Source: a virus. From it: a stretch of 64,000 nt of DNA. The notes beneath the pieces were generated by a model, which saw nothing but the letters and a program-made list of their open reading frames with translations, had not been told where the DNA came from and made no database searches. Of the stretch, positions 14,850 through 56,695 are shown piece by piece. The position numbers and the translations under genes are program-made. Every line of letters begins with the position of its first letter. The stretch's first letter is position 1. The stretch is from positions 1 to 64,000 of the IMG/VR virus record IMGVR_UViG_3300027746_000697; one strand, given 5' to 3'.

Positions 14850-15649
14850 GAGTTTTAGTAACTGGTTACAAAGGATTCATAGGAAAAAACTTAGTCCAAT
14901 ACATTTACGACAATACAGATTGGAGTGTGGACCTGTATGAGTGGGGCGAAAGCAACATGCCCAGTATCATGGAACAGGATTGGGTTATACATATAGGTGC
15001 TATCAGTAGTACTACAGAGCGAGACTTGGATAAAGTGATGCGACAGAATGTAGACTTTACTAGGCAACTGTTCAATGCTTGTAAAACATACGGAGTGAAT
15101 TTTCAGTACAGCAGTAGTGCAAGCCTATATGGGTTTGGTACGGACTTTGCAGAAACAGCACAGTTAGATCCCCGTACTCCTTATGCTTGGAGCAAGTATC
15201 TATGTGAATACTATCATAGGCAACATCAAGGCGGCAACACGGTACACGGGTTCAGATATTTCAATGTGTACGGTAATCATGAAGAACACAAAGGCAATCA
15301 AGGCAGTCCGGTAAGTCAGTTTAGTAGACAGGACCCTATTCGATTATTTGAAGGAAGTGACAAATATCTAAGAGATTTTATTGCAGTAGAAGATATCTGC
15401 AGAATACATGTAGAGTTCATTAATCGTGTAAAAGAATCAGGCGTATGGAATTTAGGTACAGGAAAAGCAACTAGTTTCCAAGAAGTAGCAGATTTAATTA
15501 ATACAAATCAAGAATACATTCCTATGCCTGATATACTTAAATCAAGCTACCAAACATATACTTGCTCAAATAATGACAAATTAGAACATACATTAGGGCC
15601 GCAACAATGGATCACTATAAAGGAATGGCTTGATAAATATAAATTATGA
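14846..15649 (+). CDS. ADP-L-glycero-D-manno-heptose 6-epimerase-like SDR (copy 2)
   Basis: GAISSTTE, YAWSK, FRYFNVYG.HEEHKG, RDFI. Confidence 0.85.
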   Translation: MRVLVTGYKGFIGKNLVQYIYDNTDWSVDLYEWGESNMPSIMEQDWVIHIGAISSTTERDLDKVMRQNVDFTRQLFNACKTYGVNFQYSSSASLYGFGTDFAETAQLDPRTPYAWSKYLCEYYHRQHQGGNTVHGFRYFNVYGNHEEHKGNQGSPVSQFSRQDPIRLFEGSDKYLRDFIAVEDICRIHVEFINRVKESGVWNLGTGKATSFQEVADLINTNQEYIPMPDILKSSYQTYTCSNNDKLEHTLGPQQWITIKEWLDKYKL

Positions 15650-16299
15650 GAGCAAAAGAATTCCTTATTTTAGAAGCCACAAGTGACCCTGAAATTGTAA
15701 AAACTCAGGAAAAATTACGTGATCTTGGCTACGATTTAGGGCCTTACGGGCCTAACGGTGACGGCGTAGATGGTATTATTGGCCCGTATACGCAAGCCGC
15801 AATGGACGCCTATGCCAAAGGTATAGATCCTAAAAATGTTCAAAAACCAGATGCCCTTGCTGTTCAAAACTTTGAAAAAGACCATCCTATCACACGTAAA
15901 GCTTCACGTAGAAAATCTAATGGAAAAATACAAATACCTGTTAACGGGCCAGTATCTAGTCCGTTTGGACATAGAACTAGTGTAGGCAAAGCCCATAGTC
16001 ATAATGGGACTGATTTTGCTGTTCCAACTGGAACTGAAGTAGTTGCACCAGCGTCTGGAGTAGTTACCGGCGCAGGCTCAGGCTCAGGTGGCGAAGGAAA
16101 CTATGTGACATTAGACGCAGATGGTGTAGTGCATAAATTCTTCCATCTTTCTAAAATTTTAGTACAAATTAATGATCAAGTAAGCGCAGGCGATGTAATT
16201 GCGTTATCGGGTAACACCGGTTATAGTACTGGCCCGCACCTGCATTGGGAAACACATATTGCTGGAACTCCAGTAGATCCTATGAGGAATATAGCTTAA
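15646..16299 (+). CDS. PG-binding domain plus M23 peptidase, with MRAKEF leader
   Basis: DGIIGPYT PG-binding motif; HNGTD and GPHLH. Confidence 0.9.
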   Translation: MRAKEFLILEATSDPEIVKTQEKLRDLGYDLGPYGPNGDGVDGIIGPYTQAAMDAYAKGIDPKNVQKPDALAVQNFEKDHPITRKASRRKSNGKIQIPVNGPVSSPFGHRTSVGKAHSHNGTDFAVPTGTEVVAPASGVVTGAGSGSGGEGNYVTLDADGVVHKFFHLSKILVQINDQVSAGDVIALSGNTGYSTGPHLHWETHIAGTPVDPMRNIA

Positions 16300-16682
16300 T
16301 GCGAGCAAAAGAATTCCTTCCTGAAACTAAACTACACGGCACATTTGGCAAAGTAGATGCACAAGTATCTAATAGTTTACCCGGTGCATTTGTACAGCGT
16401 GATTTGCGTAATACTGACCCTTATATGCAGTATCGTTATGGCATGGCGTTGGCTGGAGCAAGAGCTAACAAGGATCACGATGTAGAGTTTGAACAAGAAA
16501 GTGCATGGGCTGAGAATCTTGCACTGGTAACATTTTCACCAGAAGACGAAGAGACTATTCGTCTTGCAGACAAGATGATGGGTGTTAAAGCTAGTCGTAT
16601 TGCCAGTAACAAAAGTACAGAAACAGATGTTAACGCAGTTAGTCCTGTATCTAAACCAAAACGTAATCAATACGGGGTCTAA
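16299..16682 (+). CDS. hypothetical virion protein with MRAKEF leader
   Basis: ATG overlaps the upstream stop; MRAKEFLPE. Confidence 0.75.
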   Translation: MRAKEFLPETKLHGTFGKVDAQVSNSLPGAFVQRDLRNTDPYMQYRYGMALAGARANKDHDVEFEQESAWAENLALVTFSPEDEETIRLADKMMGVKASRIASNKSTETDVNAVSPVSKPKRNQYGV

Positions 16683-17639
16683 ATGAGAGCAAAAGAATTC
16701 ACATTATCAGAAGTAGCAGAACCAAAGCGTTCCAATGTGGATCCGTTAGGCGACTTAGTAAATAAAATAACAAATAAATCAGCACCTGTCAAACAACGTC
16801 CTGCTGGCACTCCACCGATACATATTGCATTAGAACCTAAAGGCTTAGGATCATACATTGAAAACAAAGCCAAAGCAGACGGTATCAAAGGGGTACAGCT
16901 GGCTAACTTTATGGCACAGTCCAAGGTTGAAACAGCAGGATTTACCGCCTTAGAAGAACGTGCAGACGGCTCAGGGTATGAAGGCAAATTAATACTTGGT
17001 AACAAATACAGAGGCGACGGACCTTTATTCAAAGGCAGAGGATTCATGCACTTGACCGGTCGTGAGAATTACACCAAATGTGCAGCCGCAATGCCTTCTT
17101 GCAAAAACATTGTTAAGAATCCTGAATTAGTTGCAACAAACAAAACAATTGCCGCAGACTCTGCGTTATGGTTTTGGAATACATTTATTAGACCCAACTA
17201 TCGCTCTAGCGATATACATGGAGTATCAATCAGAGTTAACGGTGGCTCCAATGGATTAACAGAACGTATTGCGGCATTCAAAGCCTACGTTGAAAAATTA
17301 AAGAAAGGCATACCATCCAGTTTGAATAAACGAGCTGAAGCGGATATCGAAGGCAATGCTGATCAGTATGTGGCAAGTGTTGATATGCCAGACGAACTAG
17401 CGGAAGAAGGCAAAGCAAGTCGTGCATTATGTACAGGCGGCAAGCCAGATCACGAATTAGGTGCAAGTCAGTTGGCTAGTTGTAAAAGTCAAGGACTTAG
17501 AGCCCGCGATGGTGAAAAGAGTCATTTGATCACTGCCGGCAAACGAAATGTGCGTGTAACCGTTGGCGGCAAGAAAATCAAAGGCAAAAAATACGGTGGC
17601 CCGTTACCTGACTATGGCACAAGGAAGAATCAACGATGA
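16683..17639 (+). CDS. GH19 glycoside hydrolase (endolysin-type) with MRAKEF leader and basic C-terminal module
   Basis: FMAQ..VET..F..LEE, FKGRGFMHLTGRENY, NGG.NGL.ER. Confidence 0.85.
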   Translation: MRAKEFTLSEVAEPKRSNVDPLGDLVNKITNKSAPVKQRPAGTPPIHIALEPKGLGSYIENKAKADGIKGVQLANFMAQSKVETAGFTALEERADGSGYEGKLILGNKYRGDGPLFKGRGFMHLTGRENYTKCAAAMPSCKNIVKNPELVATNKTIAADSALWFWNTFIRPNYRSSDIHGVSIRVNGGSNGLTERIAAFKAYVEKLKKGIPSSLNKRAEADIEGNADQYVASVDMPDELAEEGKASRALCTGGKPDHELGASQLASCKSQGLRARDGEKSHLITAGKRNVRVTVGGKKIKGKKYGGPLPDYGTRKNQR

Positions 17640-18931
17640 GATTTAATGAATTCAAATCTTTTTTAAGAGAAGATAAAAAGAAAACATATGCAATAGGTGA
17701 TAGTCATGCTAATGCTATTGCCAAAGCTGGAGGGTTTGTTAACCTATCCAAAGACGGTAGACGGGTAGAACGTCCAGAGAATCTGGCCGCAGTTAACCAA
17801 GTATTACCAGGCAGTGTAGTTGTTGTATCGCTTGGTGCCAACAACATGTTAGATGAAAACAAAGACAGCGTTGCAGATCAAATAGCTGATTTGTTACAAA
17901 CATTATTGAGTAAAAAATGCAAAGTATATTATATATTGTTTGCTGAAACTGATAATCCCAAGTATGCCAAAGACAGGAATAGATTAAGAACAACAGTTCA
18001 GTCAGTAATTCCGTCATCAGTACATGTTATTGATATGGGTACATTATCCATCAAAAACGGCGACGGAGTACATGCTAACGGAGGCTGGTACAACTCTACA
18101 GCACAAACTATCAAGTCGGAGTCTACAAATTTCCCAAGCGCAACCAGTCAAGTACCTGCACAAGACATTGTATCGCCTAGCAAAGAAGTTGGTGAGGTTG
18201 ATCAAGCTACAAAAGTTTCACCCAGTATCTATACTGTGGTGAGCGGTGACAATCTTTCAAATATTGCAAAAGACCACGGAGTTCCGTTAGCAGATTTGAT
18301 TGCCGCCAACAAGCAAATTAAGAATCCCAACAAAATCTATCCGGGTGATAAAGTTACCATTCCAGGCGGAAGCCACACTAATCCTACTCCACTACCGCCA
18401 GCCGTGGAACGCGGTCATCCAACAATGAAAGATGATCCACGTATCGTAACACCTACGCAACCTAAGAAGAAAAAAACTTTCAGCAAATACGAAATAGCCA
18501 ATACTGATTCAGCTGGCGAATGTTTTGACTTTTTTAAAGATAAAGGATTCAACGATATTCAATGTTCTGCATTTGTTGGAAATTTCAACGCTGAATCAGG
18601 ATTTAATACTACGGCGCACAACAAAAAAGAAAATGCAAGAGGAATTATACAGTGGAGACTAGATCGATTGAGTGGCCTTGCTGAATTTGCAAAAAAAGTT
18701 AAGAAAAAATGGCATAGTTTAGAATTACAATTAGATTATTCTTGGCACGAACTCACCGGAAGATACAAGAAAGTATTGCCAGCATTAGAGCGTAATAAAA
18801 ACAATCTTGAAGAATGTGTTAGAATTATCATGGACGATTACGAAGTCGCCAGTCCACAGTCTTATCCAGAACGATTGGGATATGCCGAGTCAGCCATGCG
18901 TTTATTTGGAACCGAGACTGAACGCAAATAA
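17636..18931 (+). CDS. SGNH-like plus LysM plus phage tail lysozyme multidomain protein
   Basis: IGDS..GANN..DGVH; YTVVSGDNLSNIA..NPNKIYPG; GNFNAES..GIIQW. Confidence 0.8.
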   Translation: MRFNEFKSFLREDKKKTYAIGDSHANAIAKAGGFVNLSKDGRRVERPENLAAVNQVLPGSVVVVSLGANNMLDENKDSVADQIADLLQTLLSKKCKVYYILFAETDNPKYAKDRNRLRTTVQSVIPSSVHVIDMGTLSIKNGDGVHANGGWYNSTAQTIKSESTNFPSATSQVPAQDIVSPSKEVGEVDQATKVSPSIYTVVSGDNLSNIAKDHGVPLADLIAANKQIKNPNKIYPGDKVTIPGGSHTNPTPLPPAVERGHPTMKDDPRIVTPTQPKKKKTFSKYEIANTDSAGECFDFFKDKGFNDIQCSAFVGNFNAESGFNTTAHNKKENARGIIQWRLDRLSGLAEFAKKVKKKWHSLELQLDYSWHELTGRYKKVLPALERNKNNLEECVRIIMDDYEVASPQSYPERLGYAESAMRLFGTETERK

Positions 18932-18939
18932 ATATCTGC

Positions 18940-19488: not shown

Positions 19489-19538
19489 GTAATATTAAGT
19501 GTATAATGTTTAATACACCGCCGTTTTAAAAGGTTCTT

Positions 19539-20467: not shown

Positions 20468-20468
20468 C

Positions 20469-21143: not shown

Positions 21144-21177
21144 TTTCTAATAAATACTCTTATTACACGGAGTATAT

Positions 21178-21779: not shown

Positions 21780-22319
21780 ATGAGAGCAACAGAATTTATA
21801 ACCGAAGACTGGAACAAAGTTAATCATCATGACAAAACCAACGGTCTAAGTCAAAAAGCTGTTAATGCATATCGTAGAGAGAATCCAGGCAGCAAATTAA
21901 AAACAGCAGTTACTACTAAGCCCAACAAGTTGAAAGCAGGCAGTAAGGATGCCAAACGCCGTAAGAGTTTTTGTGCCCGCATGAGTGGCAACAAAGGCCC
22001 AATGAAGAAACCCAATGGCAAACCTACACCAAAGGCATTGGCATTACGCAGATGGAACTGTGAGAGCGTGGAAGAGATGGTGGACATGATCATAGAGAAT
22101 ATGGATCATGCCAAGGACAATCAAGCTGTGCCAGAACTCAAGTCAGCATTGTTAGCAAAGAAAGTAACATTACAAAATGCCAGCGAAGATCAGGTATACG
22201 ATATTATTGATACATTAATGACACGTATCGCCAAGTCGCACGGCATAAGTGGACAGAAGTTACATGACATGTGGGTTAAAGAGTACGATCAAATACCGGA
22301 CACTTGGATTATGAAATGA
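21780..22319 (+). CDS. basic modular virion protein with MRATEF leader
   Basis: MRATEFITE; K/R-rich domain RRKSFCARM..ALRRWNC followed by a second module. Confidence 0.75.
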   Translation: MRATEFITEDWNKVNHHDKTNGLSQKAVNAYRRENPGSKLKTAVTTKPNKLKAGSKDAKRRKSFCARMSGNKGPMKKPNGKPTPKALALRRWNCESVEEMVDMIIENMDHAKDNQAVPELKSALLAKKVTLQNASEDQVYDIIDTLMTRIAKSHGISGQKLHDMWVKEYDQIPDTWIMK

Positions 22320-23236
22320 GAGCTGTTGAAATACAACCACGCAAACTGGTTATCTTTGACATAGATGACACGCTGGTGCATACTCAAACCACAGTACACG
22401 TAATTAAAGACGGCCGTGCTGTGAAAGCTCTTAACAGTCACGACTTCACACACTACAAACTACAACCTGGCGAATCGTTTGACTTTGAAAACTTTCGCAA
22501 CGCACAAGAATTCTTTAATAACAGCAAACCAATCATCCCCATGATTGATCAGCTGAAACATGATATCAACACAGGCAACAAGGTAGTCATGGTAACTGCC
22601 CGTGCTGACTTTGATGATAGAGAATTGTTCTTGGACACGTTTCGCAAGTATGGGGTAGACATGGATCGTGTGCATGTGTACCGTGCTGGCAACATGAATA
22701 ACAAAATTCAAACAGAAGAAAAGAAAAAGATTATTATTCGTGGCTTAATGGACAAAACACCATATACCAAAGCCATTATGTATGATGATGCTGTGCCTAA
22801 TTTAAAAAGTTTTTTAGAACTTAAACAAGAATATCCACAGACTAGATTTTATGCTTGGCATGTGAGTTTGGAAGGTGACGCCAGCGAGTATCATAGAACA
22901 AATGAATCACAATCGTTAGAAGAACGCAAGAAGAAACGCAAACCACGCAGAGCCGCATATGGTCCTGGATTGTACGGTGGGTATGGATATTTCTCAAACT
23001 ACGGCAACAGTGATAGTGCAAGCGACAGTGGTGGAGGCGATGGAGGCGGTGGCGAAAGTATGGCACAAGAAAACTTTGCTGATGGACGTAATCCACAAGA
23101 CAAAGGTGATTCAAAGCGTCACGGAGTTCCTACTAAAGCAAGCGTAAGTACACTGCGCAAGGTTGCTAAACAAGGCGGCCGCAAAGGACAACTGGCCCAT
23201 TGGATGGCTAATATGAAAGCAGGACGTAACAAATGA
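22316..23236 (+). CDS. HAD-superfamily phosphatase with C-terminal low-complexity and basic modules
   Basis: IFDIDDTL, VTAR, MYDD. Confidence 0.8.
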   Translation: MRAVEIQPRKLVIFDIDDTLVHTQTTVHVIKDGRAVKALNSHDFTHYKLQPGESFDFENFRNAQEFFNNSKPIIPMIDQLKHDINTGNKVVMVTARADFDDRELFLDTFRKYGVDMDRVHVYRAGNMNNKIQTEEKKKIIIRGLMDKTPYTKAIMYDDAVPNLKSFLELKQEYPQTRFYAWHVSLEGDASEYHRTNESQSLEERKKKRKPRRAAYGPGLYGGYGYFSNYGNSDSASDSGGGDGGGGESMAQENFADGRNPQDKGDSKRHGVPTKASVSTLRKVAKQGGRKGQLAHWMANMKAGRNK

Positions 23237-25032: not shown

Positions 25033-25124
25033 AGTGAACTATTTACTATAATGCTGTTGTCAACAGCTAAATATTGATGTGGCGTACTAGCGTCGATCAA
25101 ACAATACTAGATTGGAGAATTACA

Positions 25125-26670: not shown

Positions 26671-27081
26671 ATGCGAGCTAAAGAATTCTTAGCAGAAGGG
26701 TTAGATAAGAAGTCAACGTATAGTATACTACACGACTTTGTTCGTTTTGCCGCTGAACATTTGGAACTTGAAACACTGCCCAAGTTTGACTTTGTGTTTG
26801 ACTCAAAGAAAAGTGTTGAGCACAAATCGTTTGGTGGATATCAACCAGGCGCTGAACACATCACTATTACTGTAAAGAATCGCCACATCAATGACGTGTG
26901 CAGAACATTGGCACATGAAATGGTACACTTCAAACAAGACTTGAACAATGAGTTGAGTGATGATGCCGCTGGTTCAACTGGATCACCGCAAGAAAACGAT
27001 GCCAATGCTGAGGCCGCTGTGATCATGCGCAACTGGGGCAAACTGCATCCCAACTACTTTGATAAAGAATCAATAGAATAA
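26671..27081 (+). CDS. zincin-like metallopeptidase with MRAKEF leader
   Basis: RTLAHEMVH (HExxH)...ENDA. Confidence 0.75.
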   Translation: MRAKEFLAEGLDKKSTYSILHDFVRFAAEHLELETLPKFDFVFDSKKSVEHKSFGGYQPGAEHITITVKNRHINDVCRTLAHEMVHFKQDLNNELSDDAAGSTGSPQENDANAEAAVIMRNWGKLHPNYFDKESIE

Positions 27082-32687: not shown

Positions 32688-33395
32688 ATGTATGCTAACG
32701 AAACTCACTCAGACCTTGCACCCACTCACAATCAGCTGAATCCCAGCCTGTGGGACGGCACTGAACTCAAACTGGAAATTCGTTATAAACTGCTACAAAT
32801 TGCCAAGCACTTTATAGACTACATCAATATACCCAATTTAGATCTTACTGACATTACTATCAGCGGCAGTAATGCTAGTTTTGGTTATAGTAAGCACAGC
32901 GACATAGATCTACACTTGATAGCCAACATGCCCAAGGATCACTCAGATCTCAAAGAGCTATTCAATGCTAAGAAGAATCAATACAACAGTACATACCGCA
33001 TCACACTCAAAGATATACCTGTAGAAGTATATGTACAAGATGCCGCAGAGCCGCATCACAGTGCAGGCATTTTCAGTGTGTTGGACAGCAAGTGGTTAAG
33101 CGAGCCCAAAGAGCTAACACCCAATGTAGACCCAAAAGAGATTAAAAAGAAAGCCCGCAACTACTCTGGAAAGATAAACCAATCATTACGATCAAACGAC
33201 TTAAATACTGCAAAGGAAACAATGGATCATATCTATCGTTTACGCAAAGCTGGCTTGGAAGCTGGCGGCGAATACAGCATTGAGAATTTGGCATTTAAGC
33301 TATTGCGTTCCAGGGGACAAATAGACAAACTGCGCAAGCGCATTGATCACTTACAAAGCAAACAACTAAGCCTCGGGGAACAAGATGAAGATTAA
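32688..33395 (+). CDS. Pol-beta-superfamily nucleotidyltransferase
   Basis: ISGSNAS..YS..SDIDLH, PVEVYVQD, ENLAFKLLR. Confidence 0.75.
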   Translation: MYANETHSDLAPTHNQLNPSLWDGTELKLEIRYKLLQIAKHFIDYINIPNLDLTDITISGSNASFGYSKHSDIDLHLIANMPKDHSDLKELFNAKKNQYNSTYRITLKDIPVEVYVQDAAEPHHSAGIFSVLDSKWLSEPKELTPNVDPKEIKKKARNYSGKINQSLRSNDLNTAKETMDHIYRLRKAGLEAGGEYSIENLAFKLLRSRGQIDKLRKRIDHLQSKQLSLGEQDED

Positions 33396-34197
33396 AGATA
33401 TTCTAGAACATAAAAAAGGTCACAGAGCCAAGCTCTATACTAAAAAGCCACAACAACAAACCACTAAACCAGGTATGCCTCAAGTGGATGTCAATGAAGA
33501 TGGCGAGGCGTACAAAGTTATGCAAAACGATCCAACCAAAGGATTGACTTTGGCCAAGCCCGATGGCACACAACTTATTCTTCCTCCGGAGAAGATGGCT
33601 TCAGTAATGGCTGACCCAACTGACCCAAACAAATTCACTATGAATCCAGATGCAGTTGCGGACACACAGACTGATCCTAACAAACCAATGGGTCCTGAAG
33701 TGGGCAAAGAGGTTGAAATTGCGGCCGCAGAAGATATCGGCGCTCACGACGACATGGGAGATGACTTTATCAAAGACGTCAGTGTGAAACCACATGTAAG
33801 TGGTAGTTACAATTACGAAAACCAAGACGACAGTTTCAGTATGACTCCTGAAGAGTTCATGACTGGGCTTGCACAAACAGCACGTGAGAACGATACAGAT
33901 CTAAGCCCAAATGACATGGAGTCCGCAAAGAAGTTTATAGTTCCTGATGGTCAAGGCAATGTTGACTTAGTGTTAACTATGCAAAAAATGTCCAAGGCGT
34001 TTGACAATCCAGAATTTTTAAAGATGATTGACGACTTAAAAGCAATGGTAGGCGATGCACCTGATGTGCCTACAAGTCAACAGCCATCAGATAGACCCAC
34101 TTCAATCAAACCAGTAACACCAAGTGCAGACACAGCATCTAGACAAGCTGATGACGAGTTGTTAGAAAAAATGAGAACCATCGCAGGATTGAGATAA
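33385..34197 (+). CDS. acidic head-associated protein (putative)
   Basis: MKIKDILE leader; C-terminal LEKMRTIAGLR. Confidence 0.6.
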   Translation: MKIKDILEHKKGHRAKLYTKKPQQQTTKPGMPQVDVNEDGEAYKVMQNDPTKGLTLAKPDGTQLILPPEKMASVMADPTDPNKFTMNPDAVADTQTDPNKPMGPEVGKEVEIAAAEDIGAHDDMGDDFIKDVSVKPHVSGSYNYENQDDSFSMTPEEFMTGLAQTARENDTDLSPNDMESAKKFIVPDGQGNVDLVLTMQKMSKAFDNPEFLKMIDDLKAMVGDAPDVPTSQQPSDRPTSIKPVTPSADTASRQADDELLEKMRTIAGLR

Positions 34198-34460
34198 TGA
34201 AAATCAACGAAATACTTAAAGAAAACGATCCAACCGCACAAATAGCGGCAGATGCCCAGGCTATGGGACAAGCATTCAAATCCGGACAAATGGCTCCTAA
34301 ACAATTTGCTCCTGGTGAGATTAGTCTTTCACAGATATTTTCTCATCCTAAGTTTCGAGAAACTGTTGGACAGATGCATAAAAAATATCCTAATAATCAA
34401 GATCAAGCACAAAGAGCCGCGGAAGAAGTTATTAAAGGTTTAATTAGGCAAGGGCAGTAA
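34197..34460 (+). CDS. small protein with MKINEILKE leader
   Basis: coupled ORF. Confidence 0.7.
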   Translation: MKINEILKENDPTAQIAADAQAMGQAFKSGQMAPKQFAPGEISLSQIFSHPKFRETVGQMHKKYPNNQDQAQRAAEEVIKGLIRQGQ

Positions 34461-34714
34461 TGAAAATTAGTGAACTTTTAGACGGTTACGAACATAGTCC
34501 AAAGAACGAAAAGATATACAGCCTGCTTGACGGTTTTGATATATGGACTACTAACGAAGAGGCCAAACTATTAGCCCGTCTAAAAGAACCTGTTAAACTT
34601 AGCCAGCTGAGCGAGCAGGATCAATTCAAAGTTCAGGTCATGATACGCAAGAGTTTGATAACTAAAATAGGAATGAACGATCCTAGTGTAGTTGCAAATG
34701 AAAAAATCACATAA
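34460..34714 (+). CDS. small protein with MKISEL leader
   Basis: coupled ORF. Confidence 0.7.
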   Translation: MKISELLDGYEHSPKNEKIYSLLDGFDIWTTNEEAKLLARLKEPVKLSQLSEQDQFKVQVMIRKSLITKIGMNDPSVVANEKIT

Positions 34715-35192: not shown

Positions 35193-36191
35193 ATGCAAAT
35201 TAGAGAATTATCAAAACCTGTTACAAGCTCAAGACTTAACGAAAGTTTGGCTAAAAACTTTGGATACAAATTGAAACTGGAACAGTTCAACGATATTCAA
35301 CTTTCAGACGTGCAAAACAAACTACGCACTGAAATGAGCCAACTTGAAATGAATGAAAGTTTTGACTCGTTGAGTGGTAGCCCAGCTTACCAAAAGACTC
35401 GTGCTTTGCTTGACGTTATCAATCAAGAAATCATGGAGCGTGAAGAAGGCAAATGCGGCGATTGCCATAAGAGTCCATGTGCATGTGATATTGATGAATC
35501 TCAAGACGAAGAAACAACAATGAAAAAACAAAAGAAAAATGAAAGTGTTAACCAATACAGAGCAAATGCAATTGGTCAAAGAGCCCGTGGCTTTTCAGTA
35601 CCACAAAGTTGGATCAATGGCGCAATCAATAGAATCCATTTAGGTGAAAGTGACAATGCTGAACTCAAAGCAGAACTATCTATTCGTTACGACTTAACAG
35701 AATCACAAGCAAGTTATATTCTTGCTGAAGGCGAGGAAGACAAGGCCGAAATCATCATGGCTACAAAAGACATGGTAGACCGTATCACAGGCTGGCTAGA
35801 AGATGTAGCCGCAATGAAAGCAGAACAACTGCTTGAACTAATGGACTCTATAAGAGAAACCCAAGGAAGTGATGTTGCACAACAATATCAAGATGCAGTC
35901 AAACCTGCATTAGAGGCAATTTACACAGCATTAGAAACTTCAAGAACCGGTCTATCAACAGGCTTATCATTAGTGTCAGGCGGAGAAGCTCCAACCATGG
36001 GCGCACCGGCAGCACCAGCAGGTGGTTTACCATCCATGGGTGGTGATGCAATGGCAGGCATGGCCGCTGACATGTCAGGCGCCGCACCAGCAGAAGCAAC
36101 TCCTCCAGCACCAGAAGTAGGCAGAGAAAAAAGAGAAAGCATTGACTACAGCCGTAAGTTAGGCATGTTGTTGGCTTCAAAAAAAAAATAA
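35193..36191 (+). CDS. prohead core/scaffold-like protein (putative)
   Basis: TATAAATA promoter; helical and acidic, with many (I/L/M)xE(S) sites; Pro/Ala tail. Confidence 0.5.
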   Translation: MQIRELSKPVTSSRLNESLAKNFGYKLKLEQFNDIQLSDVQNKLRTEMSQLEMNESFDSLSGSPAYQKTRALLDVINQEIMEREEGKCGDCHKSPCACDIDESQDEETTMKKQKKNESVNQYRANAIGQRARGFSVPQSWINGAINRIHLGESDNAELKAELSIRYDLTESQASYILAEGEEDKAEIIMATKDMVDRITGWLEDVAAMKAEQLLELMDSIRETQGSDVAQQYQDAVKPALEAIYTALETSRTGLSTGLSLVSGGEAPTMGAPAAPAGGLPSMGGDAMAGMAADMSGAAPAEATPPAPEVGREKRESIDYSRKLGMLLASKKK

Positions 36192-51054: not shown

Positions 51055-51111
51055 TGTAAAACGCCGTAAGGGTTTTACATATTCTTGCTTAATTTAAAGG
51101 AGAAAATTATG
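51055..51111 (+). promoter_or_regulatory. ROSE-like RNA thermometer leader of dnaK
   Basis: hairpin followed by TTCTTGCT pairing with the AAGGAGAA SD. Confidence 0.55.
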
Positions 51112-53013
51112 AGCAAAATCATCGGTATCGATTTAGGTACAACAAATAGCTGTGTAGCAATCCTAGAAAATGGAATTGCCAAAGTAATTGAAAACAGCGA
51201 AGGTGCTAGAACAACACCATCAATCATTGCGTATACAGAGAAAGAAATTCTTGTAGGCGCAACAGCAAAACGACAAGCAGTCACAAACCCAAAGAACACT
51301 ATCTACGCAAGCAAGCGTCTTATTGGGCGCAAGTTTGACGAAAAAGAAGTACAGAAAGACATTGACTTGATGCCATACAATATTATCAAAGCTGATAATG
51401 GTGACGCATGGATTGAAGCCAACGGTGAAAAACTTGCACCACAACAAGTGTCAGCTGAAGTATTGCGTAAAATGAAAAAGACAGCGGAGGATTATCTTGG
51501 TACAGAAGTTACTCAAGCAGTTATCACAGTTCCTGCATACTTTAACGATAGCCAAAGACAAGCAACTAAAGATGCTGGCCGCATTGCCGGCTTGGAAGTA
51601 CTGCGTATTATTAACGAACCTACTGCGGCAGCTCTTGCTTATGGTGTTGATAAAGCTGATAAAAGAGACAGGAAAATTGCTGTTTACGACCTTGGTGGTG
51701 GTACATTCGACATATCAATCATTGAAATTGCAAATATTGACGGCGATAAACAAATTGAAGTACTAAGCACCAACGGCGACACCTTCTTGGGCGGTGAAGA
51801 CTTTGATCAAGTTATCATGGATCACTTGGTTGACGAGTTCAAGAAAGACAGCGGCATTGATCTTAAGAAAGACATGCTGGCCTTACAACGCCTCAAAGAG
51901 TCAGCGGAAAAAGCCAAGATTGAATTGTCCAGCGCCGCCAGTACCAGTGTTAACTTGCCATACATCACAGCAGACGCAACTGGTCCTAAGCACATGAATG
52001 TAACTATCAGTCGTGCTAAGTTTGAAGGCATGGTTGAGCAACTTATTGAGCGTTCAATTGCTCCATGTAAGATTGCCATGACTGATGCCAAAGTAACTGC
52101 CGCAGACATTGACGAGGTTATACTGGTTGGTGGACAAACACGTATGCCTAAAGTACAAGAAGCAGTTGAGAAACTGTTTGGCAAGTCTCCACGCAAAGAC
52201 GTTAACCCAGACGAAGCAGTGGCCGCAGGTGCCGCGATTCAAGGTGCAGTGTTGGCCGGCGACAAGACGGATGTGCTGTTGCTGGACGTGACACCATTGA
52301 GCCTAGGTATTGAAACAATGGGCGGTGTGTTTACCAAGTTGATTGCCAAGAACACAACAATTCCAACCAAGGCCAGTCAAACATTCAGCACTGCGGATGA
52401 TAATCAACCAGCTGTGGACATCAAAGTAGCACAAGGCGAGCGTGAACTATTCAAGTTCAACAAAGCACTGGGTGAATTCAAGTTAGATGGTATTAGTCCA
52501 CAACCACGTGGCATGCCGCAAATTGAAGTTACGTTTGATATTGACGCAAACGGAATTATGAATATCAGTGCCAAAGATAAAAGCACCGGTAAAGAAAACA
52601 AGATCACTATTAAAAGCGATAGCGGATTATCAGAAGCTGAAATCCAGCGCATGGTACGTGAAGCGGAAGACAACGCAGAGTCTGATAAGAAAATACGTGA
52701 GTTAATTGATGCACGTAACAGTGCAGAATCAACTACACACGGCATCAAGAAAGACTTTGAAGAATTCAAAGATCAGTTGACTGAGGAAGAAAAGACTGCA
52801 TACGAAACTGCATTCAAAACTGTCGAAACAGCAGTTTTAGGTGAAGACGTAGAAGCCATTACTACATCAGTTACTGCATTTTTTGAAGCGGCCGGTCCTG
52901 TAATTGCTAAAAAGCAAGCCGCAGAACAGGCCAAAACTGCACCACAAACTCAAGGTGGTGAACAAACTGTGGATGCGGCCTTTACAGAGGTTGACCCCGC
53001 AGACAAAAAGTAA
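51109..53013 (+). CDS. dnaK: chaperone DnaK (Hsp70)
   Basis: [32 protein letters not shown]. Confidence 0.97.
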
Positions 53014-53019
53014 TATAAT
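52991..53019 (+). promoter_or_regulatory. sigma70 promoter for hsp20 embedded in the dnaK 3' end
   Basis: TTGACC-17-TATAAT. Confidence 0.75.
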
Positions 53020-53026
53020 GTAACAT

Positions 53027-53082
53027 GCAGGACGCCTTAGGGGTCCTGCGAGGTTCTTGCTTATTTAAAGGAGAAAATTATG
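53027..53082 (+). promoter_or_regulatory. ROSE-like RNA thermometer leader of hsp20
   Basis: GCAGGAC..GTCCTGC hairpin followed by TTCTTGCT..AAGGAGAA. Confidence 0.6.
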
Positions 53083-53502
53083 AACCAACTTAGAACTATT
53101 GACGCCGCTCACTTGGCTAATCTTAGCAGAGCACTTGTGGGATTTGATCGTTATTTTAACGGACAATTTCCCAACACTAATGGTAACTATCCACCACACA
53201 ACATTGTAAAGTATGATGAAACACATTACAGTATTGAAGTGGCAGTTGCCGGCTTCACCAAAGAAGAAATCAATGTAACTGTTGATCAAGATCAATTAAC
53301 TATCATCGGCAAACAACACATAACCGACGACAGTAAAGAGTACTTGCATCGAGGGTTAGCGGCTAGAGACTTTGAACAGACATTTACTCTTGCTGAGTAT
53401 ATGGAAGTCAAAGGTGCTGAAGTTAAAGATGGTATGCTCAAAATTCAAATAGAGCGTATTATTCCAGAGGCACTCAGACCTCGGCATATTGAAATTAAAT
53501 AA
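53080..53502 (+). CDS. small heat-shock protein (IbpA-like)
   Basis: NYPPHNI, AVAGF, YLHRGLA.R.F, DGML. Confidence 0.93.
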   Translation: MNQLRTIDAAHLANLSRALVGFDRYFNGQFPNTNGNYPPHNIVKYDETHYSIEVAVAGFTKEEINVTVDQDQLTIIGKQHITDDSKEYLHRGLAARDFEQTFTLAEYMEVKGAEVKDGMLKIQIERIIPEALRPRHIEIK

Positions 53503-53550
53503 TTGTAAATAACAATGGGGGAGGAAACTCCCCCAACATCGGAGAACTAA

Positions 53551-53853
53551 ATGGCAGGCACGGATATTCAACTAGAAGAGAAAATTAAAGTAGTAGTAAG
53601 CGAACCTAAAAGATGGAAGGTTATCCTGCTCAACGATGATTCAACTCCAATGGATTTTGTTGTTTCAGTATTAATTGAAATTTTTAAACATAACCCTGAT
53701 ACTGCTCACGCTGTCATGGCAGAAGTACATGAAACCGGAAGTGGAATTGCCGGAATTTATAGCTTTGAAATTGCCGAAGCCAAAGCCGTTGAAGCAACCA
53801 ATCAAGCTCGTACTAGCAACCATCCTTTACAGATTAAATTGGAAGAAGAATGA
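53551..53853 (+). CDS. clpS: Clp protease adaptor ClpS
   Basis: KVILLNDD.TPMDFV, VH..G, EIAE.K, HPL. Confidence 0.9.
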   Translation: MAGTDIQLEEKIKVVVSEPKRWKVILLNDDSTPMDFVVSVLIEIFKHNPDTAHAVMAEVHETGSGIAGIYSFEIAEAKAVEATNQARTSNHPLQIKLEEE

Positions 53854-54395
53854 GTCTGCGAGATATTACCAAAGACCTTCATCACAAGGCAGAGACAACA
53901 ACATTTGCCAAGATGCTTCTTAGCGGCAAAATTGAAAAATCACACTATAGAAACTATCTGTATAATCTATTAGCAATATACGATCCAATTGAATGGTATT
54001 GTAAGCGGCAAGGTTTTTTTACAAATTTACACGAGTTGCCAAGATTGAAATCAATCCTTGCAGATTTTCTTGAACTGGATGAATGCGAATATTACTATTT
54101 AACTCCTGCTACTCTAGAGTATCAGGCATACTTGCACAAGCTGGCCAACGATCCAGAGCGTAAACATCTTATTAAAGCACACTTGTATTGCAGACACATG
54201 GGCGATTTATTTGGTGGTCAGATTATTAAGAAACAAGTAGCACATATTTCAAGTGGCAAATTTTATGAATTTGAAAATGCTGACACTATGAAGACTGCTA
54301 TTCGTTCAATGCTAACAGATGACCTTGGAGACGAAGCTCGTGTGGCGTTTGAGTACGCTATCAAAATGATGCGGGATCTCTACCATGGAGAGTAA
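53850..54395 (+). CDS. heme oxygenase
   Basis: LRDITKDLH..AE; AHLYCRHMGDLFGGQII. Confidence 0.9.
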   Translation: MSLRDITKDLHHKAETTTFAKMLLSGKIEKSHYRNYLYNLLAIYDPIEWYCKRQGFFTNLHELPRLKSILADFLELDECEYYYLTPATLEYQAYLHKLANDPERKHLIKAHLYCRHMGDLFGGQIIKKQVAHISSGKFYEFENADTMKTAIRSMLTDDLGDEARVAFEYAIKMMRDLYHGE

Positions 54396-55068
54396 TGTCT
54401 GGGATACATTGATCAAGATTGAGCAGTATCTTGAGTCACAATTTTACGCAACTGGTAGCATTATACACGAACCGGGTATGGCTCGCTTCAATCAACCAGG
54501 CTGGGTAAACAAAGTATGGGCAAGTAGTCGTTATCGTCGTGCCCATATCGATGTGGTAGATGCACGTGAAACAAAAGGCTTGTGGATGATGCATTGTTGC
54601 ATTTTCCCACATACCCACAATCCTGCTCCAATTTTTGGCTTTGATGTCATAGCAGGTAAAAACAAAATTACTGGTTGTTTTATCGACTACAGTCCAGCTG
54701 GCGATGCAGAACATCCTATGATTGAATACTTTGGCAAAGAAGTTGGCCGCTACGAGTGGAATAAAAAACGCAAACTGCCTGAGTGGGCAGAGCGCATTTT
54801 CAGCGAGCACATGGTGGCCGCCGGCAACGTAAGCGATGAAACTGAACTTAACCAACTCACAAGTCTGGCACATATCCTAGTAAATCATTACTTAGACTCA
54901 GTATCTGAAACTAATAATACAACCAACAATACTACAGAATCACAGAATTATTATTGTGAGAATCAAAAGCAAAACCCACATACTCCTAAAGTTATGGTTA
55001 GTTTAGGGCTTAGTGAGGAAGATGTACAGGTTTTTATTCAGGATTGCTTGTTCCCCGAAATACGATAA
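54385..55068 (+). CDS. ferredoxin-dependent bilin reductase (PcyX/PcyA-like)
   Basis: RRAH, MHCCIFP..PIFGFD, DYSP, LPEWA..IFS, Q..YC.NQKQNPHT, LFP; follows heme oxygenase. Confidence 0.85.
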   Translation: MESNVWDTLIKIEQYLESQFYATGSIIHEPGMARFNQPGWVNKVWASSRYRRAHIDVVDARETKGLWMMHCCIFPHTHNPAPIFGFDVIAGKNKITGCFIDYSPAGDAEHPMIEYFGKEVGRYEWNKKRKLPEWAERIFSEHMVAAGNVSDETELNQLTSLAHILVNHYLDSVSETNNTTNNTTESQNYYCENQKQNPHTPKVMVSLGLSEEDVQVFIQDCLFPEIR

Positions 55069-55078
55069 ATATTTTACT

Positions 55079-56695
55079 ATGAATATTCTCGATATAATCA
55101 CCGAAACAGCCATGTCTGCTGGCGAACTTCAAAAACATAACTATCTCAGTAATTTTGCCCAATTAATAAAATTAGGAACCCCTATAAAAATTGTAGCAAG
55201 CAAGCAAGATAAATTTGGAGAAACTGTTATAATCTCTAAAACTACAGCAATGCAAGCAATAAAAGACATCCTTATGGGCCGCGCAACAAGTTTACCGCTG
55301 AGTCGAGAAAGCATAAAAATTGTAAATGCATTACCTTCTAATGCTACAGCTAAATCTAAAATACTGCTAGTACCTATTACTGCTATAGAAAAGTCTATGC
55401 AAATTAAAGGAAAAACTAGCGATTTTAACATAGGCGGAATTGGAGAAATATGTTTAGGAGTTGCGGCAACTGCTAGATTTTTAAAATTAGCAGAATTAAT
55501 TGATGTGATGGATTTTATAAATTTTGCTAATGAGTTAAAAGTAACTCCATTTGTTGGAAAAACTGGAAAAATTGGAAACTCATTAAAATTAACATATTCC
55601 GGACCACTATATCATACTAACGGTAAAACAGATAAATTATTTTGTGTAATTGTTGCGCCAGGCCGCGACGTTAAAACATTCCTGCAAATAATGAAAAATC
55701 CTGAGTCTGCGCCACAAGCAGTTCAATCAGTTATATCATCATCTGTGGTATACGCTAACGATGCTAAAAAAATATCTGTAGGTATTAAAAGAACTTCTGA
55801 AGATCCTAATATTAATAATATTGAAATTGTAGCAGACGGACAAAGCGATAATAAAGGAACAAAAGCAGATTTAGTAATGAATATCGACCAGTCTCGAATT
55901 ACACTTATTAGTGCTAAAACAGGCCCAAGTCAACTTGGGCAAGCATCGGGCAAAGAATTTTCTAAACAAGTTGACTTCTTTCAAACTGTTTTCGGAGTTG
56001 ACATAAGCGGATTAAAGAAAACTTGGATTCCAGACGGCAAAGCCGACAATACTCCTACACTTACTATTGCTTGGCAAAAACATGCAATTCCTAAAGTATT
56101 ACGATTAACAGGCGGCGACAGTGTTCAAAAAGAAGCAAGTTTAGTACAATCGATAGCTAAAGGATTAATAAGATATGCTAACGACCAAACAGACACGGGT
56201 GAAGTAGAGACCGTAGATATTGTCAAATTAATCACAGATGTTGGACAGCCTGGTTATACTTTAATGAGAATTGACTCAAGGTTGGAATCAGCATTATCAA
56301 AAGTTGACTTACACGGAAGCCATACAGAACGCGGTGTTGCTGTATCTGGTAATGTTAATGGAAAAATGATTAGTTTATTTAGGGCTTGGAGTTATTACAG
56401 TCCGGCAGGAAAAACTACCAGAACTGCCATTGCTGGAGGCCCGTTGTTAGATACGTTAGCTGTATTGACTCCTGAGCAATATAGACAAGAAACTCCAACT
56501 CTAGTAGTTAGACCATCAAAAGAAAAAACTGCGGTTAAAACTGTACCAGTTAAAAAAACTGCGGTTAAAACTGTACCAGTTAACAATGTTCCTGTTGACA
56601 CAACTACAGATAACTCCGTTGTAGTGGAACCATCATCTACACAAGACATCGATGACCCAATGCAAGCAGAATCTATAATACGTCTAAAGTTTTAA
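55079..56695 (+). CDS. large protein with MNILDIITE leader and PD-(D/E)XK-like motif
   Basis: G.IGE, TKADL..ISAK; AT-rich. Confidence 0.55.
   Translation: MNILDIITETAMSAGELQKHNYLSNFAQLIKLGTPIKIVASKQDKFGETVIISKTTAMQAIKDILMGRATSLPLSRESIKIVNALPSNATAKSKILLVPITAIEKSMQIKGKTSDFNIGGIGEICLGVAATARFLKLAELIDVMDFINFANELKVTPFVGKTGKIGNSLKLTYSGPLYHTNGKTDKLFCVIVAPGRDVKTFLQIMKNPESAPQAVQSVISSSVVYANDAKKISVGIKRTSEDPNINNIEIVADGQSDNKGTKADLVMNIDQSRITLISAKTGPSQLGQASGKEFSKQVDFFQTVFGVDISGLKKTWIPDGKADNTPTLTIAWQKHAIPKVLRLTGGDSVQKEASLVQSIAKGLIRYANDQTDTGEVETVDIVKLITDVGQPGYTLMRIDSRLESALSKVDLHGSHTERGVAVSGNVNGKMISLFRAWSYYSPAGKTTRTAIAGGPLLDTLAVLTPEQYRQETPTLVVRPSKEKTAVKTVPVKKTAVKTVPVNNVPVDTTTDNSVVVEPSSTQDIDDPMQAESIIRLKF
56523..56581 (+). 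repeat. 30-bp coding tandem repeat (KTAVKTVPV x2)
   Basis: aaaaaactgcggttaaaactgtaccagtt repeated. Confidence 0.85.

Follow-up and report, generated by a model that had tools for sequence, protein, structure and literature searches.

Nine genes in the window, the whole 64-kb stretch of phage DNA analysed here, open with a shared leader that we take, with a probability of roughly 0.7, to be a capsid targeting propeptide of the T4 type. Because these nine gene starts are very like the head-loading tag of T4, the virus particle probably contains several enzymes that cut the cell wall, together with a small protease.

Leader form and chance controls

The window covers the first 64 kb of a 116.6-kb (116,631-bp) fragment (completeness 32%) of an uncultured jumbo phage from lake water, a T4-like phage of ~356 kb related to T4-type phages. 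A syntenic relative, G006 (356,312 bp, 96% complete), aligned to 97,189 bases of this 116,631-base contig at 72-86% identity (pieces of at least 800 bp). A preliminary description had listed 12 N-termini, and a sequence check confirmed all of them at their coordinates; they open plus-strand ORFs of 84 to 538 aa (Table 1). The full leader, M-[R/K/N]-x-x-[E/D]-[F/I]-(x)-[L/I]-x-E, was present in nine genes, where [L/I]-x-E ended each leader at residue 8 to 12 (n=9), and a partial leader in three. The three starts described as weaker proved to be so: there was no [LIV]xE in 22316 before the catalytic FDIDDT, which starts at residue 14; Asp took the place of Glu in 34460; and the first L-x-E of 35193 came only at residues 15-17, with nine [LI]xE sites in total. 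The G006 ortholog of 22316 begins MRAQEFQPKK, and the MKISELLD start of 34460 is the same in G006. The product of 35193 has a C-terminal part rich in Ala/Gly/Met, matched PHROG 14154 'virion structural protein' (E 2e-8) and looks like a scaffold-like or virion protein. Leader-core proteins without a cut site exist; the cut site is not universal.

Table 1. Leader-bearing genes, doubtful members and late-promoter-like motifs in the window.
Feature	Coordinates	Strand	Length (aa)	Leader or motif	Description
Candidate cargo 1	15646..16299	+	217	MRAKEFLILE	Peptidoglycan-binding-like region, then M23 metallo-endopeptidase domain
Candidate cargo 2	16299..16682	+	127	MRAKEFLPE	Widespread small phage family
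Candidate cargo 3	16683..17639	+	318	MRAKEFTLSE	GH19 (chitinase/lysozyme-type) domain
Candidate cargo 4	17636..18931	+	431	MRFNEFKSFLRE	SGNH/GDSL-like block, LysM, Phage_lysozyme2
Candidate cargo 5	21780..22319	+	179	MRATEFITE	Basic; DUF6321
Doubtful member	22316..23236	+	306	MRAVEI (MRAVEIQPRK...)	HAD-type phosphatase-like; leader core only
Candidate cargo 6	26671..27081	+	136	MRAKEFLAE	Small HExxH zincin-like domain
Candidate cargo 7	33385..34197	+	270	MKIKDILE	Acidic
Candidate cargo 8	34197..34460	+	87	MKINEILKE	Leader similar to T4 gp24 MAKINELLRE
Doubtful member	34460..34714	+	84	MKISELLD	Leader core with Asp replacing Glu
Doubtful member	35193..36191	+	332	MQIRELSK	Acidic
Candidate cargo 9	55079..56695	+	538	MNILDIITE	Basic
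Late-promoter-like motif	15632..15639	+		GATAAATA	Ends 6 nt before ATG of 15646; within 3' end of upstream epimerase gene
Late-promoter-like motif	55064..55071	+		GATAAATA	Ends 7 nt before ATG of 55079

A shared start could arise by chance or from the usual composition bias of N-termini; MK.. starts are common in AT-rich phages, and one of the nine strict-pattern matches (ClpS at 53551) looks accidental and is probably a chance match. All controls were contrary to this explanation. The DNA pattern MR.KEF matched four times in the window and never in 100 dinucleotide shuffles. The strict protein pattern was found at the N-terminus of 9 of 174 called genes (at least 60 aa); inside the proteins it occurred at 48 of 32,226 positions and at 2 of 756 Met residues (gene starts against internal, binomial p ~1e-11). 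A six-frame scan of the whole contig (116,631 bp) for ATG codons that begin the core M[RK]xx[ED][FILV] and have 50 or more open codons behind them gave 11 occurrences; 10 were genes of the preliminary description, all on the plus strand from 15,646 to 34,460. The core together with the cut site was observed 8 times, against 0.31 expected when each N-terminal column was shuffled among genes (maximum 4 in 2000 shuffles). The leader was also kept across hundreds of relatives. A chance origin, already refuted by these controls, has a negligible probability, and the N-terminal enrichment proposed earlier as a check was seen in the window and its contig, with gene starts far above chance in the shuffles, the binomial test and the column permutation.

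Conservation of the leader in relatives

The leader DNA pattern matched 127 times in a scan of IMG/VR; 93 of the matches fit the strict leader pattern and stand at the start of ORFs of 60 aa or longer, and more than 100 distinct IMG/VR ORFs open with the leader. Among 112 distinct MRAKEF starts, residue 7 was I/L/V in 94 and residue 9 was Glu in 89; residue 8 and the residues from 10 onward were variable, and conservation ended sharply at the Glu. Arg was encoded by AGA (93), CGA (11) and others (8), Ala by GCA (69), GCT (25), GCC (16) and GCG (2), Ile by ATA (26), ATT (20) and ATC (19), and Glu by GAA (74) and GAG (15). The variable synonymous codons together with the residue pattern indicate that selection acts on the peptide and that conservation ends at the cut site.

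These data bear on the possibility that the shared start is a nucleic-acid feature, namely a translation-initiation region used in common or a cassette-swapping recombination joint, and that the peptide has no role. The tagged genes do act as cassettes: leader genes are frequently in tandem, of 39 loci of the 127-aa gene (16299), only those of the two closest relatives have the hydrolase genes on its flanks, and modules of T4-type phages are reportedly shuffled at conserved motifs. However, residues were kept while synonymous codons varied freely, orthologs replaced MRAKEF by MKVKEIL (same chemistry, different bases), and conservation stopped exactly at the protease-site Glu. Exchange of cassettes can go together with a targeting role but is no substitute for it, and we regard a purely nucleic-acid origin as very improbable.

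The leader was kept in diverged orthologs of four candidate cargo families. In the 127-aa family (484 relatives), an alignment of 29 sequences showed M1 as invariant and E9 as retained in at least 90%, and 20 of 26 ORFs taken from IMG/VR loci carried the leader in variants such as MRAKEFLPE, MRANEFIVE, MKINEIITE and MKVFDLIAE; its AF2 model had a pLDDT of only 60. In the M23 family, the leader core was present in 109 of 120 examined homologs, and the first Glu past the core was residue 10 in 92 of these; the residue two before that Glu was I/L/V in 76 of 107 and Thr in 21 of 107. A hydrophobic signal anchor replaced the leader in the most distant M23 homologs among the matches listed, which are of the cell type (P0233-P0236, P0240; 272-274 aa); together with a leaderless DUF6321 protein (below), this speaks for a portable leader. 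In the HExxH family, a 9-residue leader was found in 46 of 58 distinct orthologs, mostly as MKVxE[IL]LTE as against MRAKEFLAE in the window, indicating that the MRAKEF and MKVxE[IL] forms are interchangeable. The full leader opened 61 of the 150 representatives listed for the 55079 family (152 cluster representatives, E <=0.001), e.g., MRAHEFLFE, MKTTEFLTE and MKINEILLE. The portable leader on proteins unrelated to one another, as first described, is therefore a real peptide-level signal, given the enrichment at gene starts and the conservation in orthologs.

The cut site was absent from part of these families, which counts against head loading: apart from the Thr of M23 homologs, the Glu at residue 8 was missing in many 33385 orthologs though MKIKDIV was retained, and 23 of the 112 MRAKEF starts had no Glu at residue 9 (e.g., the MRAKEFTINxPI family).

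Proteins carrying the leader

Three of the tagged proteins are wall hydrolases. The M23 domain of 15646 (PF01551, E 7.6e-29) contains the motifs HNGTD and HLH, and PF01471 was precomputed for some homologs. The GH19 domain of 16683 (PF00182, E 4.9e-10) was accompanied by a match to PHROG 181 endolysin (E 1.5e-32), and the G006 ortholog begins MRAKDFILFE. The 17636 protein matched PF18013 (E 2.6e-25) and PF01476 (E 5.6e-14); its SGNH/GDSL-like block is AIGDSHA, with GDS beginning at residue 21, and the PF13472 match was weak (E 1.2e-4, under its cut-off). Its G006 ortholog begins MRFTEFKLVLKE. A full-length ortholog of the M23 protein was not found in cultured phages, where M23 matches fell in tape-measure and tail proteins. 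The position of M23 domains of other phages on tape-measure or tail proteins counts against head loading, as does the site of action of peptidoglycan hydrolases, the periplasm, given that T4 delivers its internal proteins together with the DNA.

The remaining tagged proteins were more varied. DUF6321 of 21780 (PF19846, E 7e-18) is preceded by MRATEFITE in G006 as well; the DUF6321 protein of marine cyanophage S-ShM2 is without the leader. HEMVH lies at residue 82 of 26671, and H82, E83 and H86 were invariant in 36 sequences of the family. Weak fold matches of this protein (E 0.006-0.15) were to zincin peptidases only (SPRTN/Wss1, minigluzincins, IrrE), and its AF2 model had a pLDDT of 87.7 with residues 1-7 below 50, which fits the expected free tail. 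The 33385 protein has a second site, V-N-E at residues 36-38, directly before the conserved DGEAYKV. No Pfam family, no match in cultured phages and no meaningful match in T4 was found for 55079, and its matches in Atlas were viral hypothetical clusters only.

The proposed cargo list of peptidase, glycosidases, phosphatase, metalloprotease and nuclease stood in part. The M23 peptidase, the GH19 domain, the lysozyme domain and the HExxH zincin-like protein were tagged; the phosphatase has the leader core and lacks the cut site. The nuclease has to be dropped, since none was tagged: a signal peptide opens the SNase homolog at 21178, and the leader is missing from the PD-(D/E)XK exonuclease at 36581. 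The set was also called large, which is relative, with about nine proteins in the window and roughly 10-14 leader-tagged genes among the 408 called in G006.

The presence of three peptidoglycan hydrolases of endolysin kinds, and the position of the leader next to the first catalytic block in 17636, would suit a pro-sequence that holds the enzymes, above all the wall hydrolases and the zincin, in an inactive state until it is removed by a protease late in infection, for lysis from within and with no capsid loading. We consider this unlikely. From T4, proteases of the gp21 type are known to be active only inside proheads, the small non-enzyme proteins 16299 and 34197 are tagged too, and a disordered tail of nine residues is unlikely to block an active site. 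Moreover, a separate lysis-type enzyme with an N-terminal hydrophobic segment (signal anchor) and a Hydrolase_2 domain is encoded at 46535-47065, showing that the tagged hydrolases are not needed as endolysin.

Prohead protease, head genes and genomic setting

The T4 prohead protease cuts at L/I-x-E, and the first 10 residues of IPIII are the capsid targeting sequence, according to PMC9026906 and PMC8442874. In the T4 record, MKTYQEFIAE opens IPII and IPIII, and related starts are those of gp24 (MAKINELLRE), gp21 (MNEPQLLIE), gp67 (MEGLIE) and gp68 (MLLIPE); gp23 has LTE at 63-65 and gp22 has 16 [LI]xE sites. The claimed likeness to the T4 internal-protein form was thus upheld, and the gp24 form is matched as well.

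No protease or head gene was found on the window's own 116,631-bp contig, so the link to a protease and head module rests on relatives. PF03420 was present in 4 of 5 large contigs with MRAKEF genes, in all three of those at least 90% complete and in both further relatives. G006 encodes a gp21-type prohead protease that begins with an L-R-E site, and its head module contains gp23 with LLE at 39-41, in the propeptide, before SPSAGAT and a gp22-like scaffold ORF with 16 [L/I]xE sites. In a further relative (G003), portal, protease and gp23 were confirmed by Pfam, and the ORF adjoining the protease begins MRSQYEQLIE. The leader end is accordingly the [L/I]xE site of gp21-type proteases, as had been supposed, and the lineage encodes such a protease.

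We infer docking, cleavage, packaging and ejection of the tagged proteins. Late in infection they would be synthesized with a flexible leader, 8 to 12 residues long (Met, basic, two variable, acidic, Phe/Ile/Leu, then [L/I]-x-Glu), which would dock each protein onto the scaffolding core while the prohead assembles. The gp21-type protease (Peptidase_S77) would cut behind the leader Glu, the leader would depart, and the mature protein would remain in the head beside the DNA until it exits at the next infection. The cargo would comprise the M23 endopeptidase, the GH19 enzyme, an esterase-LysM-lysozyme fusion, the HExxH zincin-like and DUF6321 proteins and four further proteins.

An address other than the head core (the tail or baseplate lumen, or a membrane), or another protease, would agree with the tail-borne M23 domains of other phages, with the location of the tagged genes among 'virion structural protein' family matches beside a tail-spike-like gene, and with the leader-core proteins that lack a cut site. 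Such a destination is improbable, because the form and cut site of the leader match T4 head propeptides, the leader is too short and too charged for a membrane signal, and no tail protein of the T4 type is known to us to begin in this way.

The gene 15646 heads a four-gene tagged operon. The T4 late-promoter consensus is TATAAATA; the late-promoter-like motifs just before 15646 and 55079 (Table 1) count in favour of head loading, as does TAAATA, found 4-8 nt upstream in 25 of 112 IMG/VR leader genes. GTATAAATA occurs 27 nt upstream of 35193. Two features of the setting count against head loading: a promoter motif lies directly upstream of only two tagged genes and also before untagged ones, and the tagged genes of G006 (~287-335 kb) are far from its head module (79-90 kb).

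Comparison with known systems

Like the T4 internal-protein leader, the leader described here is a conserved tag, about 10 residues long, at the very start of diverse, otherwise unrelated proteins, with a Met + basic start, a core E-F-[I/L]-x-E (MKTYQEFIAE vs MRAKEFLAE and MRAKEFLILE) and an end at the L/I-x-E of the gp21 protease. It differs in its consensus, MRAKEF..., and is often 9 residues long. T4 internal proteins are small, basic anti-restriction proteins encoded in one or two ip loci, whereas the candidate cargo includes cell-wall enzymes of 217-538 aa, and the tagged genes are scattered over ~40 kb in an uncultured jumbo relative (~356 kb). The second leader form (MKINEILKE, MKIKDILE) is close to T4 gp24, and the proteases of relatives start with L-x-E (MLYLRE, MNNLLIE) as gp21 does; however, gp24, gp21, gp67 and gp68 are structural or core head proteins, and the tag here is on accessory enzymes.

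In virion-associated peptidoglycan hydrolases such as T7 gp16, the M23 or lysozyme domain is part of a tape-measure, tail or internal core protein. They share their catalytic domains with the tagged hydrolases, and the presumed role is wall opening at entry, but the proteins described here are free-standing with a head-type leader and are not parts of tail proteins. A precedent for a large enzyme as processed head cargo is T4 Alt, an ADP-ribosyltransferase cut by gp21 and injected, as described in PMC9026906; Alt acts in the cytoplasm and has no sequence relation to any tagged protein. For the inner-body and ejection proteins of phiKZ, 201phi2-1 and SPN3US, phages of a different lineage that are without a short common N-terminal tag, PMC9026906 describes how a diverged homolog of gp21 cuts many proteins of the head interior behind a Glu; the site is S/A-x-E and not L/I-x-E as here.

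A shared leader at the start of unrelated proteins

The preliminary description had listed 12 N-termini opening with a common leader, a peptide of 8-12 residues (M-[R/K/N]-x-x-[E/D]-[F/I]-(x)-[L/I]-x-E; core M[RK]xx[ED][FILV]), and every one was found where it had been placed. The full leader, ending in the cut-site motif [L/I]-x-E, was present in nine of them and a partial form in three; the nine proteins carried unrelated domains and had the leader in common at the extreme N-terminus. By analogy with T4, the leader is probably (at roughly 0.7) a capsid targeting propeptide of the T4 type that is removed by the prohead protease.

The N-terminal motif enrichment proposed in the description was borne out, the leader being above chance in four controls. 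The DNA pattern for MR.KEF matched 4 times in the window and 0 times in 100 shuffles. With genes called by a simple longest-ORF script, the strict leader pattern opened 9 of 174 called genes, compared with 48 matches at 32,226 internal positions and 2 at 756 internal Met residues; the match in ClpS, counted among the nine, is probably accidental. The core at an ATG followed by at least 50 open codons occurred 11 times in the six frames of the whole contig, and 10 of these were genes of the original list. When N-terminal columns were shuffled among genes, 8 leaders were observed in the window versus 0.31 expected; in two related IMG/VR records, G006 and G003, the numbers were 10 versus 0.27 and 8 versus 0.34. 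Chance, a reading of negligible probability, was refuted by these controls.

Features of the window, its contig and the related record G006 (window coordinates unless stated)
Location	Strand	Feature	Leader and remarks
12517-15649		Five sugar-nucleotide genes: two epimerase/dehydratases, cupin, cytidylyltransferase-like, PfkB kinase-like	Directly upstream of the tagged operon, 4-nt overlap with it
15632-15639		Late-promoter-like TAAATA	4-7 nt before ATG
15646	+	M23 endopeptidase, metal motifs intact	Full
16299	+	127-aa protein	Full
16683	+	GH19 domain	Full
17636	+	GDS(H) esterase-like block, LysM and phage lysozyme domain	Full
21780	+	DUF6321 protein	Full
22316		HAD-type phosphatase-like	Core only; [L/I]-x-E absent
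26671	+	HExxH zincin-like protein	Full
33385	+	No known family (Pfam, PHROGs, Atlas)	Full
34197	+	No known family (Pfam, PHROGs, Atlas)	Full
34460			Partial; [L/I]-x-E absent
35193-36191		Acidic, 332 aa, nine [LI]xE sites, Ala/Gly/Met-rich C-terminal part	Partial; by its sequence resembles a protease-degraded scaffold/core protein more than cargo
37325-39244		Mtd_N-type opening, pectate-lyase-like domain	
43458-44450		330-aa PAAR-motif protein, probably the baseplate spike tip	AATAAATA motif 5 nt from ATG
45228-45909, 49871-50116, 51085-55068		Host-like genes: IscU, IscA, ribosomal protein S21, DnaK, Hsp20, ClpS, heme oxygenase, ferredoxin-dependent bilin reductase	Set unusually rich for a phage
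46535-47065		Hydrolase_2 (SleB-type) cell-wall hydrolase	N-terminal hydrophobic segment
55064-55071		Late-promoter-like TAAATA	4-7 nt before ATG
55079	+	No known family (Pfam, PHROGs, Atlas)	Full
Contig 83822-85060		Mtd_N-type opening	
G006 89082-90281		399-aa ORF by head and baseplate genes	Starts MKVLDVILE; leader-bearing, close to the head module of this relative
G006 169308-170411		Longer fusion protein	
G006 320437-320718		Member of the MRAKEFTINxPINI family	Core only

Conservation of the leader in related viruses

When IMG/VR was scanned for MRAKEF by means of a degenerate DNA pattern, at least 127 matches in at least 123 stretches came up; among the matches listed, at least 93 started ORFs of 60 aa or more and satisfied the strict leader pattern. 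In the 112 distinct MRAKEF starts among the matches listed, residue 7 was I/L/V in 94 and residue 9 was Glu in 89, while residue 8 and residues 10 onward were variable. The conservation ended exactly at the Glu of [I/L/V]-x-Glu. Codon use varied synonymously at Arg2, Ala3, Ile7 and Glu9, indicating that conservation acts at the peptide level. A family of 86-96 aa opening with MRAKEFTINxPINI, found in G006 and at several IMG/VR loci (L029, L035, L049, L089, L091, L100, L120) and not in the window, had the leader core and lacked [ILV]xE at residues 7-9; its members may be targeted without cleavage or cleaved further in.

The core was present in 109 of 120 M23 homologs examined (family of 15646), and the first Glu past it was residue 10 in 92, a length equal to that of the T4 tag. 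Of 107 homologs, 76 had I/L/V two positions ahead of this Glu and 21 had Thr there. The most distant M23 homologs among the matches listed (cell type, 272-274 aa) had a hydrophobic signal anchor in place of the leader. The 127-aa family (16299) had 484 relatives, and 20 of 26 ORFs taken from IMG/VR loci (31-90% identity; 2 truncated and 4 longer fusions included) began with the leader in variants such as MRAKEFLPE, MRANEFIVE, MKINEIITE and MKVFDLIAE. In a 29-sequence alignment of this family M1 was invariant, E9 was present in at least 90%, and a linker of variable length lay between the leader Glu and the conserved domain; the AF2 model of the 127-aa protein on that alignment had a pLDDT of 60.5.

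The HExxH family (26671) retained a 9-residue leader in 46 of 58 distinct orthologs, mostly as MKVxE[IL]LTE versus MRAKEFLAE in the window. These orthologs exchanged MRAKEF and MK[IV]x[ED]I[LV] starts, showing two forms of one signal and justifying the way MRAKEF-type and MK-type starts had been grouped at the outset. The variation in codons argues against a nucleic-acid-level signal or a recombination joint as the origin of the shared start, and so does the exchange of one leader form for the other; this reading is very unlikely.

The full leader opened 61 of the 150 cluster representatives listed for the 55079 family, some of which (e.g., the homolog P0307) had the ten-residue variant MRNFIEIIAE, very near the T4 tag. 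The 33385 family retained MKIKDIV, with the Glu at residue 8 often missing; cleavage would then probably fall at V-N-E, directly ahead of the conserved DGEAYKV. Orthologs in G006 kept the leader for 8 of the 9 strong members, sometimes as another variant (MRAKDFILFE, MRFTEFKLVLKE, MKVKEILTE, MRVIDILSE). The DUF6321 gene of the marine cyanophage S-ShM2 was without it. In more distant phages (loci L277, L278, L282 and L183, and G006), the HExxH and 127-aa domains formed the C-terminal parts of longer proteins, whose N-terminal part resembled an NMNAT-type nucleotidyltransferase (GKFKPPH, GRFNPPHKG) and which started with a leader-like peptide (MNIGEEIVSQLLEE, MKLREMFE).

Tagged proteins

The genes at 15646, 16299, 16683 and 17636 formed one tight run with overlapping or abutting stops and starts and a GATAAATA motif ahead. 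A fixed module of the 127-aa protein and the hydrolases was rejected: the GH19 and lysozyme genes adjoined in only 2 of 39 related loci, with M23 too in 1. The product of 26671 was modelled by AF2 as a small domain with a disordered leader (pLDDT 87.7); H82, E83 and H86 were invariant, and its fold matches were zincin peptidases only, all weak (E 0.006 and above). The expected cargo of peptidase, glycosidases, phosphatase, metalloprotease and nuclease was recovered in part: the M23 peptidase, GH19, lysozyme and HExxH zincin-like proteins were tagged, but the phosphatase had the core only (its G006 ortholog begins MRAQEF) and no nuclease was tagged. For 55079, Pfam gave no family, PHROGs only weak matches of unknown function and the Atlas only unnamed viral clusters; there was no tblastn match among 50,697 phage records and nothing meaningful against T4, B23 and S-ShM2 (best E 0.03, T4). 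Window positions 15000-23000 had no megablast match in cultured phages, and the searches with 55079 and the M23 protein yielded no cultured carrier. A link to ClpS and N-degrons was discarded on inspection, the predicted post-cut residues (A, T, V, D, D, G, H, N, T) differing from the L/F/Y/W that ClpS recognises.

Two other roles for the tagged hydrolases were considered, and the features expected of each were not found. Endolysins would be placed with holin or spanin genes or have an export or SAR signal; no hydrophobic N-terminus was seen in the inspected sequences, the genes sit between sugar-nucleotide genes and an AlgH-like gene, and a signal-anchored Hydrolase_2 is encoded elsewhere. 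Tail-borne enzymes would be fused to a tape-measure, baseplate or tail-fibre protein; the tagged hydrolases, of 217-431 aa, stand free, and beyond the lysozyme domain neither Pfam nor PHROGs gave a tail domain in them. Matches to the M23 domain in cultured phages were tape-measure and tail proteins, which fits an entry role, though delivery there is by the tail. The Hydrolase_2 protein at 46535 is likely a signal-anchored endolysin and a better lysis-enzyme candidate than the tagged hydrolases; its lysis partners may be encoded downstream, where small ORFs and a gene for a 404-aa membrane protein lie.

In a tentative and rather doubtful extension of the capsid-targeting reading, the head and not the tail carries the wall-breaching tools of this jumbo T4-like phage. 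The M23, GH19 and esterase-LysM-lysozyme proteins would come from one late operon with a capsid tag on each, and would be co-packed with DNA in the head together with the minimal zincin protease. Expelled through the tail at infection, they would breach a cell wall that is thick or modified, or attack host proteins. The tag would then be a general mark by which the injected proteome of an entire uncultured clade of lake phages can be recognised in sequence. That the cargo is ejected and acts on the next host we infer as further steps, all functional steps resting on the analogy with T4.

Prohead machinery

According to passages of two papers (PMC9026906; PMC8442874), gp21, the T4 prohead protease, cleaves after L/I-x-E, and residues 1-10 of IPIII are sufficient for packaging. 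Neither a PF03420 (Peptidase_S77) protease nor head genes were found on the window's own contig, a fragment of 116,631 bp rated 32% complete. PF03420 was present in 4 of 5 large MRAKEF-bearing contigs, with no miss among the 3 of 90% completeness or more. Both of 2 further relatives had it as well, making 6 out of 7 for the large related records searched, the syntenic G006 among them. Portal, protease and gp23 stood in T4 order in G003 (Pfam). The gp23 of G003 and G006 had LAE or LLE at about residue 40, ahead of S-x-SAGAT, and that of T4 (NC_000866) had LTE at residues 63-65. The gp22-like ORFs had 18 (G003) and 16 (G006) [LI]xE sites; T4 gp22 had 16. The ORF adjoining the G003 protease began MRSQYEQLIE, and the relatives' proteases themselves began with an L-x-E site; in T4, gp21 begins MNEPQLLIE, gp67 MEGLIE and gp68 MLLIPE. 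The leader might instead be a pro-sequence for late activation, without packaging; we hold this to be unlikely, and an address to another part of the virion to be equally so.

Genome context and expression

The window's record is a single linear sequence of 116,631 bp (CheckV completeness 32%). Its nearest cultured relatives at the protein level were T4-like cyanomyoviruses (Kyanoviridae), with matches to a 'virion structural protein' of S-RIM2 and Syn33 and to hypothetical proteins of the 240-kb Synechococcus phages B23, B3 and S-SRM01. The record G006 (356,312 bp, 96% complete) was syntenic with the contig, 97,189 of whose 116,631 bases aligned at 72-86% identity (pieces of at least 800 bp), indicating that the window belongs to a T4-like jumbo phage whose genome is about 356 kb long. 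Auxiliary genes of the contig included ribonucleotide reductase, glutaredoxin and an ADP-heptose-like sugar pathway. The two proteins with Mtd_N-type openings (ISRIQVRRG, LRIRRGT) had a motif typical of tail fibres or spikes. A 2025 paper on DnaK-carrying aquatic 'moraphages' describes DnaK, Hsp20 and a prohead protease in common with the phage here (PMC12619734); the term 'N-terminal' occurs nowhere in it. Moraphages may be a related lineage.

The GATAAATA motif ended 6 nt before the ATG of 15646 and 7 nt before that of 55079, the two operon heads. TAAATA lay 4-8 nt upstream of 25 of 112 IMG/VR leader genes among the matches listed, and the same motif was also found ahead of a number of untagged contig genes. 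Besides the two operon heads, late-promoter-like TAAATA preceded about ten other gene starts at 4-7 nt (e.g., 18940, 31720 and 43458), a gap too short for a Shine-Dalgarno sequence. T4 late transcription begins a few bases past the promoter motif; if transcription starts likewise here, these late mRNAs would have little or no 5' untranslated region. Across 15000-19000, RNA libraries from two studies of lake water held short contigs that covered parts of 15658-16875 with 0-3 differences, one of them spanning the 15646/16299 junction; this records presence in RNA libraries and is not proof of transcription, and stretches without coverage are uninformative.

Comparison with T4

In the largely open-access literature searched, nothing was found on the leader or on capsid targeting sequences in cyanophages or metagenomic jumbo phages, and cell-wall hydrolases or a small metalloprotease as head cargo were not found in the T4 literature examined. 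If the tag works as in T4, it points to such enzymes as head cargo here, and sequence alone would be enough to list the proteins that uncultured T4-like phages package and probably inject. Searching with the consensus M-R/K-x-x-E/D-F/I-[L/I]-x-E is simple: a single degenerate DNA pattern recovered over 100 distinct ORFs with the tag from IMG/VR. The leader set also offers natural, ready-made variants of the T4 protein-packaging tag. The one point that sets the finding apart is a putative late operon encoding three cell-wall hydrolases, each with the tag. For T-even phages the principle can be found in papers from the 1990s onward, and the gain is in scope and cargo, not in mechanism. At the level of the peptide, MKTYQEFIAE, which opens T4 IPII and IPIII, resembles MRAKEFLAE of the window, and MAKINELLRE, which opens T4 gp24, resembles its MKINEILKE.
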